Below are positions 1 to 4,927 of a stretch of 4,927 nucleotides of DNA, one piece after another; the stretch's first letter is position 1, and every line of letters starts with the position of its first letter. The notes under the pieces are model-generated. The model did no database searches. It was given only the letters and a program-made list of their open reading frames with translations, and was not told the DNA's origin. Origin of the DNA: a virus (taxonomy: Duplodnaviria; Heunggongvirae; Uroviricota; Caudoviricetes); the IMG/VR virus record IMGVR_UViG_2706794673_000008. One strand, given 5' to 3'. The translations under genes and the position numbers were made by a program.

Positions 1-110
1 TGAGGCAGCACCTGGCACGGCTGGGACGGAAGTCGCTGTCGTTCTCAAAATCGGTGGAGCTGCATGACAAAGCCATCGGGCATTATCTGAACATAAAACA
101 CTATCAATAA
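1..110 (+). CDS. insB: IS1 transposase InsB, C-terminal fragment (5' end outside window)
   Basis: Frame with codons starting at 3 reads ...[35 protein letters not shown] then TAA at 108-110, the recalled InsB C-terminus. Confidence 0.8.
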
Positions 111-125
111 GTTGGAGTCATTACC
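1..125 (+). mobile_element. IS1 right end (3' portion including the right terminal inverted repeat); the rest of the element lies outside the window
   Basis: Sequence 1-125 matches the 3' end of IS1 as I remember it, ending ...CAATAAGTTGGAGTCATTACC at 125. One difference from the canonical copy I recall (AAAGCC vs AAAGTC near position 73). Confidence 0.9.
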
Positions 126-132
126 CCAATTT

Positions 133-146
133 TTTACGTACGTAAA
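133..146. promoter_or_regulatory. Perfect 14-bp palindrome TTTACGTACGTAAA, 8 bp from the IS1 end and about 155 bp upstream of the porin start
   Basis: Read directly: positions 133-146 are self-complementary. Function unknown; candidate dimeric-regulator site. Confidence 0.2.
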
Positions 147-214
147 CCACTAAATGATATTTGCGAGAATGCTACCGAGTATTGAAAACACCACTACAAA
201 TACATAAGCAAATC

Positions 215-235
215 CCAACAAATAACCAACAAATA
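215..235 (+). repeat. Tandem direct repeat CCAACAAATA x2 with 11-bp period upstream of porin gene
   Basis: CCAACAAATA at 215-224 and again at 226-235, separated by one A. Spacing of one helical turn, 67-87 bp upstream of ATG 302; resembles response-regulator direct-repeat sites in general architecture only. Confidence 0.3.
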
Positions 236-301
236 GATTAGATGAATATTTATCGCGCAATGACATCATTTTTTAATAATAGTTCAAAAAAAGGGCTCAC
301 G

Positions 302-1384
302 ATGAAAAAATTAACAGTGGCAATTTCTGCTGTAGCTGCATCAGTACTGATGGCGATGTCTGCTCAGGCAGCTGAAATTTATAATAAAGACAGTAACAAG
401 CTGGATCTGTACGGGAAAGTTAATGCTAAGCACTACTTCTCCTCTAATGATGCAGATGATGGTGATACTACTTATGCCCGTCTTGGCTTCAAAGGTGAAA
501 CCCAAATCAACGATCAACTGACTGGTTTCGGTCAGTGGGAATATGAATTCAAAGGCAACCGCGCTGAATCTCAAGGTTCCTCCAAAGATAAAACCCGTCT
601 TGCCTTCGCTGGCCTGAAATTCGGTGACTACGGCTCCATCGATTACGGCCGTAACTACGGTGTAGCATACGACATCGGTGCGTGGACTGACGTCCTGCCA
701 GAATTCGGTGGTGACACTTGGACTCAAACAGATGTGTTCATGACTGGTCGCACCACTGGTGTTGCAACTTATCGTAACAACGACTTCTTTGGTCTGGTTG
801 ATGGTCTGAACTTTGCTGCTCAGTATCAGGGTAAAAATGACCGCACTGACGTAACTGAAGCTAATGGTGATGGTTTCGGTTTCTCCACTACTTATGAGTA
901 TGAAGGATTCGGTGTAGGTGCAACCTATGCTAAATCTGACCGCACTAATAATCAGGTTATCTACGGTAACAACAGCCTGAATGCATCTGGTCAAAATGCT
1001 GAAGTATGGGCAGCTGGTCTGAAATATGATGCGAACAACATCTATCTGGCTACCACCTATTCTGAAACCCAGAACATGACTGTTTTTGGTAATAACCATA
1101 TTGCCAACAAAGCACAAAACTTCGAAGTAGTTGCACAATATCAGTTCGACTTCGGTCTGCGTCCGTCCGTTGCTTACCTGCAATCTAAAGGAAAAGACTT
1201 GGGTGCGTGGGGTGATCAGGACCTGGTTGAATATATTGATGTAGGTGCAACCTATTACTTCAACAAAAATATGTCCACTTTTGTTGATTACAAAATCAAC
1301 CTGATTGATAAGAGCGATTTCACGAAAGCATCTGGCGTTGCTACCGATGATATCGTTGCTGTAGGTATGGTTTACCAGTTCTAA
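302..1384 (+). CDS. nmpC: Prophage-encoded general porin, NmpC/Lc (OmpC/OmpF/PhoE) family, 360 aa, apparently intact
   Basis: ATG 302 with AAGGG at 291-295. Signal peptide [23 protein letters not shown] then mature AEIYNK..., and C-terminal ...AVGMVYQF with terminal Phe typical of beta-barrel porins. Strongly resembles NmpC/Lc lambdoid porins from memory. The ORF-track start at 242 adds 20 non-signal residues and is not favoured. Confidence 0.9.
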
Positions 1385-1399
1385 TTTGATTACTAAAAG

Positions 1400-1455
1400 A
1401 TATGTTGCGGGAGGCTTTGCCTCCCCAACATATAAGTGGCTCCCTCAAGCCACTT
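1400..1455 (+). other. Two adjacent stem-loops in porin 3' UTR
   Basis: ATATGTTGCGGGAGGC / GCCTCCCCAACATAT (about 15-bp stem with one bulge, short loop) followed by AAGTGGCT-CCCTCA-AGCCACTT (8-bp stem). Read directly. Confidence 0.5.
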
Positions 1456-1520
1456 CCTTTAGGAGCACAACCTTGCTTCTAACTATATAAACCTTCTGTT
1501 ATATATTACCCTTTATTTTT

Positions 1521-1545
1521 GGGGGCGTTGCAACGCCCCATTTTT
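1521..1545 (+). terminator. Rho-independent terminator for the porin transcript
   Basis: Perfect GC-rich palindrome GGGGCGTTGCAACGCCCC (1521-1539; 7-bp stem around a TTGCAA centre) followed by ATTTTTAATAATTTTT. On the minus strand the stem is followed by A-rich sequence, so it is not a terminator in that direction. Confidence 0.65.
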
Positions 1546-1572
1546 AATAATTTTTAGTAAACAATTGGCATA

Positions 1573-1956
1573 TTAATTAGAGTTATTAACAACGATATCC
1601 ATCTCTAACCGGATATCTAATGCCATTAACATCCCTTCAATTATGCCCTCAGCCTTCTGTAACCTTTTCCCGATATAACCATCAGAGCAGCAATGCTTAC
1701 CTGCCAGTGACATGAATGTCATACCGACTACATAATAATCTACTAATAAATCGTGCAAATCGCTGTTGTTCTTTTTCAGACGGGCCATGCACCCGCAAAT
1801 AATCATCGCGTCATCGTCACAACATTGCGGGCGAGATTTTACTTTTGAAGTAATTAATCCCTTAAAACCGGCGGCAATGGACGACCAGGTCACATCTTCA
1901 TGATTATTAGCCGCCCACGCTCCCCAACGCTCAAGAACCATCTGAATATCACGCAT
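1573..1956 (-). CDS. quuD: Lambdoid late-gene antiterminator Q (QuuD-like), 127 aa
   Basis: ATG at 1956 with GGAG 7 nt upstream on the minus strand. Protein [24 protein letters not shown]... with Cys-rich CCDDD/CGC/HCC motifs, matching my recollection of DLP12 QuuD. The ORF-track TTG start at 1971 is rejected. Confidence 0.85.
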
Positions 1957-2041
1957 CAACTTACTCCACAAAAATCAGACCAGAACGCCAATTACAAGCA
2001 AAAATCAACAAAACAGTATTAGTTGATTGTTATCTCTGACT

Positions 2042-2182
2042 TCATACTCCTGCTCCTGTCAGGGTTTTGGCGTAATTCTTCAGTATTCGGTAATCGGTCA
2101 AAACAGAACCGGGGAAACGATATAAGCGCAGATGCCCCCAGCGGTGGCGAAGAAGTTCTGCCATATAAAACTCAAACATCAT
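2042..2182 (-). CDS. ylcG: Small nin-region protein YlcG-like, 46 aa
   Basis: ATGATG start at 2182 overlapping the rusA stop (ATGA); translation [46 protein letters not shown]; TGA at 2042-2044. Sits between rusA and Q as in DLP12. Not in the supplied ORF track (below its length cut-off). Confidence 0.6.
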
Positions 2183-2541
2183 TCATTCCCCATTTCGGTG
2201 ATGGTCAGTTCCAGCCTCCCACCTTTGGTAACAGGCATCTTCACAACGCGGTAATCAACGACCTGAGCATCATCCAGCCAGAAACCTGCTTTGGTGAGTG
2301 CGTCAAAAGCGGCTTTTTGCAGATTATCCAGGTCACGGCGACGGCGATCCGGCATGTGGCACTCAATACGGATTTTCACTGGCATAGCCAGGCCGATATC
2401 CAGCATTGCGTTTTTAATGATTCGGGTGACGTTATCGCGGTATGCCTGCCCTTCTGCGCTGATGTGTGTGCGCCCGCGATTATGGCGGTAATAGCGGTTA
2501 TTGCTCGGAGGCCAGGGTAATGTGATGCTGTAGGTATTCAC
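2179..2541 (-). CDS. rusA: Holliday-junction resolvase RusA, 120 aa
   Basis: GTG start at 2541 overlapping the ybcO stop (GTGA). Protein [26 protein letters not shown]...[13 protein letters not shown] matches recalled RusA essentially along its length. Confidence 0.9.
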
Positions 2542-2828
2542 GCCTTAATAACCCCCTCTTTCAGCCAGATAACCTGCGTTCTCGCCATACCTTCCAGCGC
2601 GCATTCTTTTGCATACTCAGCATCGACAAAATATGTGCGGCGGTCGATTTCGTCGTGACAGGCAGAACATGCAATGGTGGCAATCAGGTCTGGCGGTTTG
2701 ATACCGGTACCGCACAATCCAGCCAGCCGGATATGTGCCAGTACTGACGTTTCAGGATTGCCATTACATACGCCAGGGATTCTTACCTGGCATTCCCGAC
2801 CACGCGCTGCTTTTCTCAAATCAGCCAT
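2538..2828 (-). CDS. ybcO: YbcO-like nin-region protein (Cys-rich, putative nuclease, DUF1364-type), 96 aa
   Basis: ATG at 2828 preceded by AGGAGG; protein [37 protein letters not shown]...[11 protein letters not shown]... The ORF-track upstream start at 2867 is a TTG inside ninE and is rejected. Confidence 0.8.
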
Positions 2829-2991
2829 GATTCCTCCTTGCTGCCAGTCGCAACCATTTTTTATCAACCAGGCTAGCGGTATATCCGAGCAGTGTTGGTA
2901 TTTCGGATGGCTTCAGCTCAGGCTTACGCTTACGACGATTTGATACTCTGTAGATGTGCCCGTTCATGACACGAATAAGCGGTGTAGCCAT
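2821..2991 (-). CDS. ninE: NinE-family protein, 56 aa
   Basis: Hand translation of the minus strand: [56 protein letters not shown], stop TGA at 2821-2823. GGAGG upstream; start shares one base with the ybcN stop (TAATG); 8-nt overlap with the ybcO start. Not in the supplied ORF track (below its length cut-off). Confidence 0.75.
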   Translation of the reverse strand: MATPLIRVMNGHIYRVSNRRKRKPELKPSEIPTLLGYTASLVDKKWLRLAARRNHG

Positions 2992-3446
2992 TACGCCTCC
3001 TGCTTATCGCGCAGCTGCTGGTATTCACAGCTCTGCGGAATTGTCAGGTGGCAGCCGATATTCATCGCCCAGGCTTCGACTTTGCACAGGAAGATGTACA
3101 TCTCGCCGGTTTCCAGCTCTGACGTATGGCGGAGGGATTGGACGGTGGTGACCTCGCCGGACACGACATCTACACGGTCTTTGCTTTCGTAGCCGAGATA
3201 GGTGTGCTTCATCGCGTCTTTGACCCACTCAGGCGTAGCGAAGGTCTTGCCGCGGGCGATGAGATATTCGCTGATCTCCGTGTACCACATGTGGCTGAGC
3301 GCGTTCTGCGACAGGCTGCGCTTCTCGCGCCACGGCTTAACCTGCAGGCGTAAGCATTGCCCGGCATCCAGCAATGGCTGAATCTGCTGGCCGATGGCCG
3401 CGAAGTTACCGCGATGGAGTTTGATGCCGTCTACTGGCAGAGTCAT
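2991..3446 (-). CDS. ybcN: YbcN / NinB(Orf)-family recombination protein, 151 aa
   Basis: ATG at 3446 with GGGAGG upstream; contains an RSLSQNALSHMW motif resembling lambda NinB/Orf; position immediately upstream of ninE as in lambdoid nin regions. Confidence 0.85.
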   Translation of the reverse strand: MTLPVDGIKLHRGNFAAIGQQIQPLLDAGQCLRLQVKPWREKRSLSQNALSHMWYTEISEYLIARGKTFATPEWVKDAMKHTYLGYESKDRVDVVSGEVTTVQSLRHTSELETGEMYIFLCKVEAWAMNIGCHLTIPQSCEYQQLRDKQEA

Positions 3447-3538
3447 ACGGCCTCCCTAACGGAAACCGCAGAATGCAGAAAATCGCAGGTGCATTTCTGC
3501 ATCTGTGACAAGGTGATGAGTTCAGATTGTGGTCGCAT
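3443..3538 (-). CDS. 31-aa leader ORF translationally coupled to ybcN (possibly YlcH-like)
   Basis: Minus-strand ATG at 3538 directly after an in-frame TAA, with AAGGGGA upstream; translation MRPQSELITLSQMQKCTCDFLHSAVSVREAV; its TGA overlaps the ybcN ATG (ATGA). Identity with ylcH not verified. Not in the supplied ORF track (below its length cut-off). Confidence 0.35.
   Translation of the reverse strand: MRPQSELITLSQMQKCTCDFLHSAVSVREAV
3473..3502 (-). other. Inverted repeat ATGCAGAAA-N12-TTTCTGCAT inside the leader ORF, just upstream of the ybcN ribosome-binding site
   Basis: Perfect 9-bp arms read directly. On the minus-strand RNA it is followed by moderately U-rich UCUGCGGUUUCC; candidate attenuator or weak terminator. 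Confidence 0.3.
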
Positions 3539-3557
3539 TTAAGTCCCCTTAAATGCG
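3534..3557 (-). promoter_or_regulatory. Stem-loop (10-bp stem, 4-nt loop) enclosing the SD and start codon of the leader ORF
   Basis: CGCATTTAAG-TCCC-CTTAAATGCG on the + strand. On the minus-strand RNA the leader-ORF ATG (3538-3536) lies in the stem and its SD (GGGGA) overlaps the loop. Confidence 0.3.
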
Positions 3558-3594
3558 CAGAAGTCACCGGAGTTGTTCAGGCTCCGATGAGAGG

Positions 3595-3623
3595 ATTATG
3601 GCGGATTGATTACGATAAATCAA
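3595..3623 (-). promoter_or_regulatory. Candidate sigma70 promoter for the minus-strand nin operon
   Basis: Minus-strand -35 TTGATT (3623-3618), 17-bp spacer, -10 CATAAT (3600-3595). Would place a transcription start about 50 bp upstream of the leader ORF. Confidence 0.3.
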
Positions 3624-3645
3624 AACTATCTTGAAGCCAAAACAG

Positions 3646-3674
3646 TGATCTTCGCTTTAAAAACCTTGTATACT
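3646..3674 (+). promoter_or_regulatory. Candidate promoter for the + strand cargo operon (divergent from the nin promoter)
   Basis: -10-like TATACT at 3669-3674 with TG immediately upstream; -35 poorly matched (TGATCT at 3646-3651). Weak call. Confidence 0.2.
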
Positions 3675-3710
3675 TTCACCTAATCACAGCCAGAACTATG
3701 GATCTAACCA

Positions 3711-4088
3711 ATGACCAACAAAGAAAACAAAGATAAATATATTAACAAGTTCAAGAAAGAGCTTTCAAAATATATACAACCAACTGCTGGAGTGGACATT
3801 CAATTATTTAACTCTAAGGATGGTGGTGGTGTAATTAAAGCCACTTTGAATAGAAGTGGAAAAAGAAAATCATCTATTGCTGGTAATTTTACTAAATTAG
3901 GTGAGGCAATTACCTCGAGTGGGCAGAGGGTTTTTGGTGGTGATCTATCAAATGTGAATTTTTACGGAACAAATACGATTTTTGATGGAGATACAATATT
4001 TTTAATTAAATCACCTGATTCAGAGGAGTGGTCATCACAAAAAGCTTCCAAAGACGTAGAGGGCATCGTATTTGGAGGGAAAAAATGA
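3711..4088 (+). CDS. Hypothetical protein, 125 aa, soluble, Lys-rich N-terminus and Gly-rich beta-like core; AT-rich codon usage
   Basis: ATG 3711 to TGA 4086-4088; no signal peptide or TM segment; region is visibly much more AT-rich than the flanking nin genes. No family recognised. Confidence 0.6.
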   Translation: MTNKENKDKYINKFKKELSKYIQPTAGVDIQLFNSKDGGGVIKATLNRSGKRKSSIAGNFTKLGEAITSSGQRVFGGDLSNVNFYGTNTIFDGDTIFLIKSPDSEEWSSQKASKDVEGIVFGGKK

Positions 4089-4132
4089 TTAACATTACTA
4101 CTAAGGATGCACTCAAGTCAGTGGTGAAGTAA
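4085..4132 (+). CDS. 15-codon micro-ORF (MINITTKDALKSVVK) with a strong SD, overlapping the stop of the upstream gene; possibly the true 5' end of the downstream membrane-protein gene broken by a frameshift
   Basis: GGAGGG at 4073-4078, then A6, then ATG 4085 overlapping TGA 4086-4088 (ATGA); stop TAA at 4130-4132. Overlaps the open part of the downstream gene's frame between 4105 and 4129. Confidence 0.25.
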   Translation: MINITTKDALKSVVK

Positions 4133-4170
4133 GAGATCTAGTAATTCTTCTTGAAACTGATGGAAAAACG

Positions 4171-4512
4171 GTGTCTGATTATTTGCAGCCAATCCCTCCC
4201 AAAAAAGATACACACTGGAGCATGATTTTCATTCCGGTAGCAATTTATATACTACTTAATCTTGTATACATTATTGCTCACCCATTATTTCCTGAAAAAT
4301 ATCTAAAAACATCAACATCTATATTTCTATTCATTTCCTTCATATTAAGTGCAATAGTAGCATATTTTGTTTTCCATAAGCATAAATCTGCCACTCGATC
4401 CATATGCAGCTTAGTGTTCTTAGTGTTAATTGTAGGTGCTAACGTAGGGTTTATCAGTTACAGCGACCTAACACAAAAAGCGACGCAAAAATTAGATAGT
4501 TTGTCTAAATAA
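4171..4512 (+). CDS. Hypothetical small integral membrane protein (about 3 TM helices), 113 aa as drawn; start uncertain
   Basis: Three hydrophobic stretches (IFIPVAIYILLNLVYIIAHPLF, IFLFISFILSAIVAYFVF, ICSLVFLVLIVGANVGFISY). The GTG start at 4171 has only a weak SD; alternative in-frame ATG at 4222, or an upstream start at 4085 if a frameshift is assumed. TAA at 4510-4512. Confidence 0.55.
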   Translation: MSDYLQPIPPKKDTHWSMIFIPVAIYILLNLVYIIAHPLFPEKYLKTSTSIFLFISFILSAIVAYFVFHKHKSATRSICSLVFLVLIVGANVGFISYSDLTQKATQKLDSLSK

Positions 4513-4619
4513 TTATGTTGCCATGCGAAGTATGCATGGCTGCATGTCTGCCTTCCATTTAAAATGGGCTAAGACCTATAACCCTAAATATTATTCTTTA
4601 TTATCTTCTTTACCACTTC

Positions 4620-4850
4620 GGTGATGCTGCCAACTTACTGATTTAGTGTATGATGGTGTTTTTGAGGTGCTCCAGTGGCTTCTGTTTCTATCAGCTGTCC
4701 CTCCTGTTCAGCTACTGACGGGGTGGTGCGTAACGGCAAAAGCACTGCCGGACATCAGCGCTATCTCTGCTCTCACTGCCGTAAAACATGGCAACTGCAG
4801 TTCACTTACACCGCTTCTCAACCCGGTACGCACCAGAAAATCATTGATAT
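4620..4850 (+). mobile_element. IS1 left end (left inverted repeat plus 5' part of insA), truncated internally at about 4850
   Basis: GGTGATGCTGCCAACTTACTGATTTAGTGTATGATGG... matches the recalled IS1 left end. Similarity to IS1 stops after ...AAAATCATTGATAT (4850), where IS1 continues GGCCATG but the window continues TGTCAGCGCC. Confidence 0.9.
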
Positions 4851-4878
4851 TGTCAGCGCCAGTGATATAAGACGGTAA
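4675..4878 (+). pseudogene. insA: insA' : IS1 InsA truncated after about residue 58 and fused to 9 unrelated codons
   Basis: GTG 4675; [58 protein letters not shown] matches InsA, then IVSASDIRR and stop; the native InsA C-terminus is absent. Confidence 0.75.
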
Positions 4879-4927
4879 TTCGCCATTTGGATTGTCCGCT
4901 CCACCCAACATGTTGTTTCCTTAAGGT

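Follow-up and report, generated by a model that had tools for sequence, protein, structure and literature searches.

The window, the whole 4,927-nucleotide stretch that was analyzed, is very probably the middle part of a decayed lambda-like prophage of Shigella sonnei, located beside the sucrose (csc) locus. In all likelihood, four separate insertion sequence (IS) events shaped this locus, and the window represents a whole short-read contig of the decayed prophage segment; because the events were separate, the two IS1 copies in direct orientation would be products of unrelated events and not the arms of a transposed unit. The evidence consists of observed sequence identities, junctions, target duplications, and collinearity with intact Escherichia coli prophages. 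Over its whole length the window matches, byte for byte, contig CWTL01000212.1 (4927 bp) in the draft S. sonnei assembly GCA_001253255.1. Its proteins carry the S. sonnei name at NCBI, in agreement with the Shigella origin suggested by the initial annotation, which was made from the window alone. Because the window is an entire contig, the limits of the assembly account for its truncated ends: on either side the assembler met multi-copy insertion sequences and extended the contig no further, and both apparent IS1 fragments are most simply explained as assembly breaks in repeats. The assembly containing the window is fragmented, and the history of the locus was rebuilt from other S. sonnei genomes, which are closed and contain all three IS junctions of the window. 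As reference for the flanks, the closed genome of S. sonnei 2015C-3566 was used (CP022457.1, locus L003; name from PMC6456863), which is 99.94% identical to window positions 230–4927. The E. coli ETEC1747 prophage (L001) and E. coli CEA224S (L011) served as references for the ancestral layout. The three IS junctions were found exactly in six S. sonnei loci and were missing from the E. coli loci; among 5426 E. coli genomes, none spans the window beyond position 126 or 4620 at one place. The following features were assigned.

1–125, + strand: IS1 nucleotides 644–768, with the insB 3' end and the right inverted repeat; the contig begins inside the repeat; 124/125 identical to the full IS1 at L003 4470–5237.
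126–133, no strand: CCAATTTT, the 8-bp target duplicated by the left IS1, right copy; the copies at L003 4462–4469 and 5238–5245 flank the 768-bp IS1.
234–236, no strand: junction of a 205-bp deletion private to the window contig, 67 bp upstream of the porin start codon; L003 5350–5554 (about L001 12111–12318) is missing.
302–1384, + strand: prophage-borne OmpC/NmpC-type porin gene, 360 aa; Pfam Porin_1, E = 3e-153; "porin OmpC" in the E. coli prophage annotation.
1573–1956, − strand: late antiterminator Q (quuD), from the annotation of the 99.4% identical E. coli prophage and Pfam Phage_antitermQ.
2042–3446, − strand: nin-region genes ylcG, rusA, ybcO, ninE, and ybcN (NinB-like), collinear with L001 14131–15535; Pfam RusA, YbcO, and NinE; NinB, E = 3.6e-5.
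3711–4088, + strand: cargo gene 1, 125-aa soluble protein, low G+C, function not assigned; phrog_18061 (unknown function).
4085–4512, + strand: cargo gene 2, a pseudogene here, for a 142-aa protein with three predicted membrane helices; intact in L001 16174–16602; phrog_16940.
4591–4619, − strand: last 29 bp (9 codons and stop) of replication gene P; RSGKEDNKE plus stop equals the C terminus of P, L001 16681–17394.
4620–4850, + strand: IS1 nucleotides 1–231, with the left inverted repeat and insA codons 1–58; 231/231 identical to the full IS1; Pfam InsA N-terminal domain.
4847–4850, no strand: ATAT, left copy of the 4-bp target duplication of an IS21-family element; L003 10173–10176 and 12307–12310 flank the 2130-bp element.
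4851–4927, + strand: first 77 bp of the IS21-family element (TGTCAGCGCC...), continued in L003 as the 2130-bp element; the contig ends inside the repeat.

The window is collinear with and 99.4% identical to L001 12001–16710. It follows the lambdoid order P-(ren slot)-ninB/ybcN-ninE-ybcO-rusA-ylcG-Q-porin-holin of a DLP12/PA-2-like Q-nin-porin module. Measured by integrase, immunity, and replication genes, the prophage is incomplete, with no O, cI, N, exo, or bet between P and cscB in the closed S. sonnei genomes, and by its gene content the locus is a prophage remnant and not an intact prophage.

IS1 sequences in direct orientation at both ends of the window, as described in the initial annotation, were confirmed. 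Both pieces lie on the + strand with 4494 bp between them, and BLAST E-values of 1e-59 and 1e-121 exclude a chance match. The only mismatch of positions 1–125 to the complete 768-bp IS1 is at position 73, and this piece is closed by the right inverted repeat ...GTCATTACC at 103–125. Full IS1 copies in L003 are exactly 768 bp long, with terminal inverted repeats of about 23 bp (GGTGATGCTGCCAACTTACTGAT ... GTCATTACC). A full copy contains a 91-codon insA (nucleotides 56–331) and the insB frame; DDE_Tnp_IS1 was called in L004. Target duplications of the 8–9 bp expected for IS1 were found, 8 bp (CCAATTTT) at the left copy and 9 bp (CGCTTGCAG), inverted, at the right copy and an opposed twin. In L003 the left IS1 is complete and lies between the holin and porin genes with CCAATTTT on either side, and the empty site is uninterrupted in E. 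coli ETEC1747 (about L001 11993–12000). On either flank of the left IS1, the DNA aligns collinearly with intact prophages; to the left of this IS1, L003 has the holin, lysozyme, and Rz genes, followed further left in S. sonnei locus L014 by the Nu1, terminase, and portal genes. In the closed genomes, the left IS1 is a simple insertion with an 8-bp duplication and nothing deleted. Removal of the lysis genes by IS1 had been proposed in the initial annotation. Since the closed S. sonnei genomes still have lysis and packaging genes just beyond the left IS1, no such removal by IS1 occurred; intact prophage continuing beyond an IS1, which had been named as evidence against that annotation, was found on the left side. 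Extension of the flanks through the closed genomes, the check it had proposed, recovered the missing IS1 portions and the 8-bp duplication at the left copy.

The right IS1 piece opens with the left inverted repeat GGTGATGCTGCC (window 4620–4642). Its insA has a GTG start at 4675 (Pfam Zn_ribbon_InsA, E = 1e-21, window 4675–4878) and is broken within codon 59; the end at 4850 inside insA had been placed exactly. The further claim that this copy lacks its right end was not upheld. In L003, the right IS1 runs from 9946 to 10176 and is followed by the IS21-family element and then, 2.13 kb downstream, by the remaining 537 bp up to 12847; with the halves rejoined, this copy is 768 bp long. In the closed genomes, the right IS1 is therefore not truncated but split by an IS21-family insertion in insA after nucleotide 231. 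The inserted element in L003 is 2130 bp long (TGTCAGCGCC...GGCGTTGACA), has TG...CA ends and the ATAT duplication, and encodes IstA (390 aa; rve, Mu-transpos_C_2) and IstB (266 aa; IstB_IS21). With an E. coli copy annotated as "IS21-like element IS21 family" it shares 99.86% identity. In its size of about 2.1 kb, its termini, its istA and istB genes, and its short duplication it corresponds to the IS21 family in L003, of which 77 bp lie in the window. The 77-mer of window 4851–4927 is present in 2382 of the 5426 E. coli genomes.

No target duplication surrounds the right IS1, which has ...ACCACTTC on its left and CGCTTGCAG on its right. Beyond it, the closed S. sonnei genomes carry the sucrose locus (cscK tail, cscB, torI) in place of the replication and early genes. 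E. coli CEA224S, the layout of which is presumed to be the ancestral arrangement, has an intact lambdoid prophage after cscB, arranged as torI ... exo, bet, gam, N, cI, cro, cII, O, P, ren, ninB ... Q, porin, essD. The ancestral prophage was pieced together from E. coli relatives of mosaic makeup, its nin/cargo/P side from L001 and its csc/torI side from L011 and L012, with no single genome having both. By comparison with intact E. coli prophages, also proposed initially, exo-bet-gam, N, cI, cro, cII, and O were probably lost, together with P except for its last 29 bp. The right IS1 marks a real boundary of prophage truncation and rearrangement. The initial claim that IS1 shaped the boundaries of the segment holds on the right (P cut to 29 bp, no duplication, csc DNA beyond), including the loss of replication genes, which together with the early genes are replaced by csc-locus DNA; it does not hold on the left, where IS1 made a simple insertion.

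The DNA beyond the right IS1 carries a further trace of IS1. L003 12848–16416 matches L011 9000–12568 (cscK tail, cscB, torI, and two hypothetical genes), and L003 17185–17475 matches L011 9008–8718 in reverse orientation. The two L011 matches overlap by 9 bp, CGCTTGCAG, the cscK target, which is read directly at both IS1 junctions: next to the right IS1 and, in inverted form, next to an opposed IS1 at a distance of 3.6 kb. Inverted 9-bp target copies at opposed IS1 copies are a signature of IS1-driven inversion. The inverted-duplication pattern is described in PMC4471558 as the signature of intramolecular replicative transposition "in trans", and Turlan & Chandler 1995 is cited there for the IS1 case.

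The following history is proposed, probably in this order. A clean IS1 insertion between the genes for holin and porin would have produced an 8-bp duplication and no deletion. Another IS1 would have deleted adjacent DNA comprising exo-bet-gam, N, cI, cro, cII, O, and P except for its final 29 bp, which became fused to the left end of this IS1. This deletion-linked IS1 would then have transposed within the chromosome into cscK and inverted the 3.6-kb cscB-torI block, leaving two opposed IS1 copies and, beside each, a 9-bp target copy in inverted orientation to the other. Finally, an IS21-family element would have inserted with a 4-bp duplication into insA of the right IS1 of the window and inactivated that copy's own transposase. 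The breakage of the S. sonnei sucrose locus, in which cscK is split and cscB is parted from cscK, would be due to the IS1 inversion.

The inversion may also have occurred in two steps, by insertion of IS1 into cscK with a direct 9-bp duplication and subsequent RecA-dependent recombination of the opposed IS1 copies. This route yields the same end product, opposed IS1 copies with inverted 9-bp targets, and the same ambiguity is discussed for IS26 in PMC4471558. It is a real possibility, though not the probable one: fewer events suffice for the one-step route, and work cited in PMC4471558 documents intramolecular replicative events of IS1, while no observation discriminates between the routes. 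The left and right IS1 copies of L003 differ by 1 nucleotide, which is required by neither route. With one-step replicative inversion as the preferred mechanism, the locus resembles the "in trans" inversions of IS26 and Tn4401 (PMC4471558) in that opposed IS copies bracket an inverted segment with an inverted target at each junction (CGCTTGCAG). It differs in that a chromosomal IS1 would have acted after an adjacent deletion, and in that insertion plus homologous recombination is also possible.

The flanks of the window strain presumably resemble those of the closed genomes. A different neighborhood in the window isolate, for example through further IS1-IS1 or IS21-mediated recombination, would fit the private 205-bp deletion and private SNPs of the window contig, the other joins found after the IS in two drafts, and the variation of IS sites among S. 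sonnei strains (PMC7373316). It is improbable, however, because all three visible junctions are identical to those of the closed genomes, and the odd joins fall at a scaffold gap or a collapsed repeat. The two drafts have other DNA after the IS, from the mutS side in L005 and the solA side in L007; L007 has a scaffold gap (N at 5242) at the join, and L005 jumps from IS21 nucleotide 60 to mid-IS1. These right-hand contexts were put down to scaffold or gap-fill joins (N gap; collapsed repeat), although they may reflect a real strain difference.

It is very unlikely that IS1-mediated deletions cut both boundaries of the 4.5-kb segment, removing lysis genes on one side and replication genes on the other, with a truly truncated right IS1. 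Inside the window only partial IS1 is visible, and the right boundary truly is a deletion junction within P. However, the window is a whole contig with end truncations set by the assembly, every longer S. sonnei locus with identical junctions has a 768-bp left IS1, the 8-bp duplication, and the lysis genes, and the rest of the right IS1 was found past the IS21 insertion.

Movement of the porin, nin, and cargo genes together by the direct IS1 pair, as in a Tn9-like composite transposon, is extremely improbable: the direct copies are 4.5 kb apart, their outer ends are intact in closed genomes, and transposase from other copies could act in principle, but the 8-bp duplication surrounds the left IS1 alone, the outer flanks differ (CCAATTTT versus CGCTTGCAG), both flanks of the left IS1 run collinear with intact prophages, and the unit occurs at no second site in the 5426 E. 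coli genomes or the S. sonnei loci. A composite-transposon origin was rejected on the duplication pattern and collinearity, and the initial view that the segment probably does not now move as such a transposon was borne out. The locus shares with Tn9-type elements the direct IS1 pair around about 4.5 kb. It is not a member of this type, since no single duplication surrounds the unit (CCAATTTT left, CGCTTGCAG right), the cargo is in situ prophage DNA, neither foreign nor found at a second locus and collinear with the prophage DNA preceding the left IS1, and IS21 interrupts one of the IS1 copies.

DLP12, a defective prophage of E. coli K-12 at the argU site, has the gene order ybcN-ninE-ybcO-rusA-ylcG-quuD-nmpC-essD, with nmpC interrupted by IS5. 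The S. sonnei remnant has the same gene order and names (quuD, rusA, ybcO, ninE, ybcN, essD, rrrD, and rzpD in the annotation of close relatives) and is, like DLP12, a lambdoid prophage in decay with IS insertions. Unlike DLP12, it lies beside csc/torI, its porin gene is intact, its early region appears to have been lost through IS1, and its two cargo genes stand where ren or ybcL/ybcM would.

In Shigella, 42–59% of IS insertion sites are due to IS1, and the IS of S. sonnei 53G include IS21 (PMC7373316). Within 20 kb, the locus contains three IS1, one IS21-family, two IS3-family, and one IS4-family element. It shares with the Shigella IS decay of Hawkey et al. 2020 (PMC7373316) the dominance of IS1, the presence of IS21 in S. 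sonnei, and IS-mediated gene interruption, deletions, and rearrangements; there is no difference in kind, and here one locus is described at the base-pair level. Every kind of event at the locus is already known, and the IS1 architecture holds nothing new. As a base-pair-level example of known IS1 behavior at one S. sonnei locus (simple insertion, adjacent deletion, inversion, and nested IS21), it has little scientific weight. It also illustrates that "truncated" mobile elements at sequence ends may be short-read contig ends, from which no deletion should be inferred.

All other loci have the 205 bp deleted from the window contig, and 0 of 14 loci contain the junction string. Promoter-consensus scans around this deletion and over the whole window gave promoter-like sites at or below the shuffle mean, and terminator-consensus scans of the same regions gave sites roughly one standard deviation above it. 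These counts are about as shuffles predict and therefore uninformative.

The cargo genes, with a G+C content of 32–39%, overlap each other, are transcribed against the nin genes, and occupy the slot of lambda ren. For cargo gene 1, no match was found in Pfam, PADLOC, the PDB, or by tblastn against the phage collection. Its AlphaFold model is unusable (mean pLDDT 38) because the homologues at hand are 98–99% identical. Cargo gene 2 is frameshifted in the window by the loss of one G near position 4109. It is conceivable, though rather unlikely, that the 125-aa soluble protein and the three-helix membrane protein form an uncharacterized prophage module for superinfection exclusion or abortive infection; if so, this module would already be decaying in the window strain through its frameshifted membrane partner.

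The window proved base-for-base identical to contig CWTL01000212.1 (4927 bp, assembly GCA_001253255.1) and is therefore the entire contig of a fragmented draft assembly. The contig was found by an exact-protein look-up with a 113-aa remnant ORF, which carries a substitution at window 4397, as query, and its proteins carry the NCBI name Shigella sonnei. The following features were assigned in the window:

1-125, + strand: 3' end of IS1
302-1384, + strand: OmpC/NmpC-type porin gene (Pfam Porin_1, E = 3e-153)
1573-3446, - strand: Q antiterminator, ylcG, rusA, ybcO, ninE, ybcN
3711-4088 and 4085-4512, + strand: two low-G+C genes, function unassigned (cargo genes 1 and 2)
4591-4619: last 29 bp of replication gene P
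4620-4850, + strand: first 231 bp of IS1
4851-4927: 77 bp of an IS21-family element

Both window ends fall in multi-copy repeats, IS1 on the left and the IS21-family element on the right; the right-end 77-mer was present in 2382 of 5426 complete E. coli genomes. Partial IS sequences at such ends are the pattern expected of repeat-induced assembly breaks, and the 77-bp overhang presumably reflects the k-mer length of the assembler. The apparently "broken" IS ends are assembly limits combined with a nested IS21 insertion.

The flanks, which in the isolate itself lie outside the window, were reconstructed from S. sonnei relatives, including the closed chromosomes of strain 2015C-3566 (L003, CP022457.1; name from PMC6456863) and CP049179.1 (L014). 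All three IS junctions of the window were exact in six further S. sonnei loci, two of them these closed chromosomes. In two draft relatives other DNA follows the IS, and there the joins coincide with a collapsed repeat (L005) and a scaffold gap (L007). Both IS1 pieces were aligned to the complete 768-bp IS1 at L003 4470-5237. Window 1-125 corresponds to IS1 nt 644-768 (+ strand) with one mismatch, and window 4620-4850 to nt 1-231 (+ strand) with zero mismatches; insA starts at window 4675 and the cut falls in codon 59. The two pieces had been placed correctly in the initial annotation. The mismatch, at window 73, sets this piece apart from all IS1 copies in L003 by a single C/T difference. It stems either from a variant private to this copy or from the consensus drawn from collapsed IS1 reads where the contig ends.

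The complete left IS1 of L003 is flanked by CCAATTTT on each side, and the prophage of E. coli ETEC1747 (L001), at 99.4% identity, has the site uninterrupted (...CATAACCAATTTTTTACG...). Immediately to its left lie the holin, lysozyme and Rz genes, and further left the Nu1, terminase, gpW and portal genes. This arrangement refutes the proposal that IS1 had removed the lysis genes. The left IS1 is a simple insertion by which nothing was deleted.

The right IS1 had been read as lacking its right end. In L003 the remainder was found beyond an inserted element:

L003 9946-10176: IS1 nt 1-231
L003 10177-12306: 2130-bp IS21-family element, TGTCAGCGCC...GGCGTTGACA, with istA (390 aa) and istB (266 aa)
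L003 10173-10176 and 12307-12310: ATAT, 4-bp duplication flanking the 2130-bp element
L003 12311-12847: remaining IS1

The 2130-bp element shares 99.86% identity with a copy in E. coli whose annotation reads "IS21-like element IS21 family." Without the insertion and one ATAT, the right IS1 comes to 768 bp, with a one-base difference from the left copy; it is thus interrupted by the IS21-family element rather than truncated. In L003 insA is disrupted and both ends of the IS1 are intact.

No duplication was found around the right IS1 of L003, which has ...ACCACTTC on its left and CGCTTGCAG on its right. To its left, P is reduced to 29 bp translating RSGKEDNKE*, the C terminus of P in the ETEC1747 prophage. 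To its right follows DNA of the sucrose (csc) locus: L003 12848-16416 matches 9000-12568 of E. coli CEA224S (L011) at 99.5%. This block carries the 3' tail of cscK, which the CEA224S record annotates as aminoimidazole riboside kinase, together with cscB, torI and a further two hypothetical genes. An opposed IS1 occupies L003 16417-17184 and is followed by the 5' part of cscK; L003 17185-17475 matches L011 9008-8718 in reverse. The two L011 matches overlap by 9 bp, and CGCTTGCAG adjoins the right end of the window's IS1 while its reverse complement adjoins the left end of the opposed IS1. Beyond cscB, CEA224S carries an intact lambdoid prophage, in the order torI, exo-bet-gam, N, cI, cro, cII, O, P, ren, ninB ... 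Q, porin, essD, lysis, packaging. Compared with this layout, S. sonnei has lost the whole stretch that separates the torI block from the end of P, and the cscB-torI block is inverted between two opposed IS1 copies. In the proposal of a segment with IS1-shaped boundaries, the loss of the replication genes to IS1 is thus supported and stands together with the two IS1 pieces, whereas lysis-gene removal and a truncated right IS1 do not.

In the simplest history, an IS1-adjacent deletion would first have removed the early and replication region of the prophage. The same IS1 would then have moved into cscK by transposition within the chromosome, which would have left an inversion bearing an inverted 9-bp target signature. 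PMC4471558 describes the inverted-target pattern for replicative elements and cites Turlan & Chandler 1995 for the IS1 case. An ordinary IS1 insertion in cscK followed by recombination between the opposed copies would yield the identical product; we regard this two-step route as a real but somewhat less probable origin of the inversion. A composite transposon was rejected: the 8-bp duplication is confined to the left IS1, prophage DNA runs collinear on both sides of that copy, the two outer flanks of the IS1 pair differ, and no second location of the IS1-bracketed unit was found, with 0 of 5426 E. coli genomes showing single-site coverage of the window that extends past 126-4620. That the two copies share one orientation results from unrelated events. 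The 4.5-kb segment could be deleted by homologous recombination between the copies.

Outside the window, at L003 17185-19131, cscK is broken at two points, by the IS1 inversion junction and by an IS3-family insertion of 1249 bp (L003 17476-18724), after which an IS4-family element follows. Several IS events have inactivated the S. sonnei sucrose locus. The 20-kb neighborhood in L003 holds three IS1, one IS21-family, two IS3-family and one IS4-family element. In Shigella, 42-59% of IS insertion sites belong to IS1, and twelve IS, IS21 among them, were found in S. sonnei 53G (PMC7373316). The locus represents an ordinary, already-known kind of IS-mediated prophage decay in S. sonnei.

The two overlapping cargo genes (window 3711-4512) have a G+C content of 32-39%, compared with 50-59% in the nin genes, and run opposite to these at the position of lambda ren. 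Gene 1 encodes a 125-aa soluble protein (phrog_18061) and gene 2 a 142-aa product with three predicted membrane helices (phrog_16940). The pair had no match in Pfam (above cut-off), PADLOC, PDB or the phage collection, and the AlphaFold model (pLDDT 38) was too low for use. In this contig, gene 2 has become a pseudogene through loss of a single G from a GG pair at ~4109 (codon 9). The same loss occurs in L003 and L005, and the gene is intact in L004, L006 and E. coli. The substitution at window 4397 is a Leu-to-Arg change otherwise present only in two draft S. sonnei contigs (L007, L009). In the same prophage type of E. coli CV839-06 (pig), a separate IS1 (L002 11947-12713) is inserted in cargo gene 1 at the equivalent of window ~3847-3856, with flanks overlapping by 9-10 bp. 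The AT-rich cargo has therefore been struck by IS1 more than once.

At window 234-236, 205 bp of AT-rich DNA (L003 5350-5554) are absent from this contig only, whereas every other relative, whether S. sonnei or E. coli, retains them; the loss stops 67 bp short of the porin start codon. On visual inspection, the missing DNA includes the motif cttacatcttgaaataatcaca, which resembles an OmpR box/ompC promoter. If this reading is right, the porin promoter may have been lost in this strain; the loss is possibly an assembly error. Downstream of the porin gene and before Q, window 1522-1539 forms a strong, GC-rich hairpin with a T run after it (GGGGCGTTGCAACGCCCC ATTTTT), which is likely an intrinsic terminator of the porin transcript, as predicted from the sequence.
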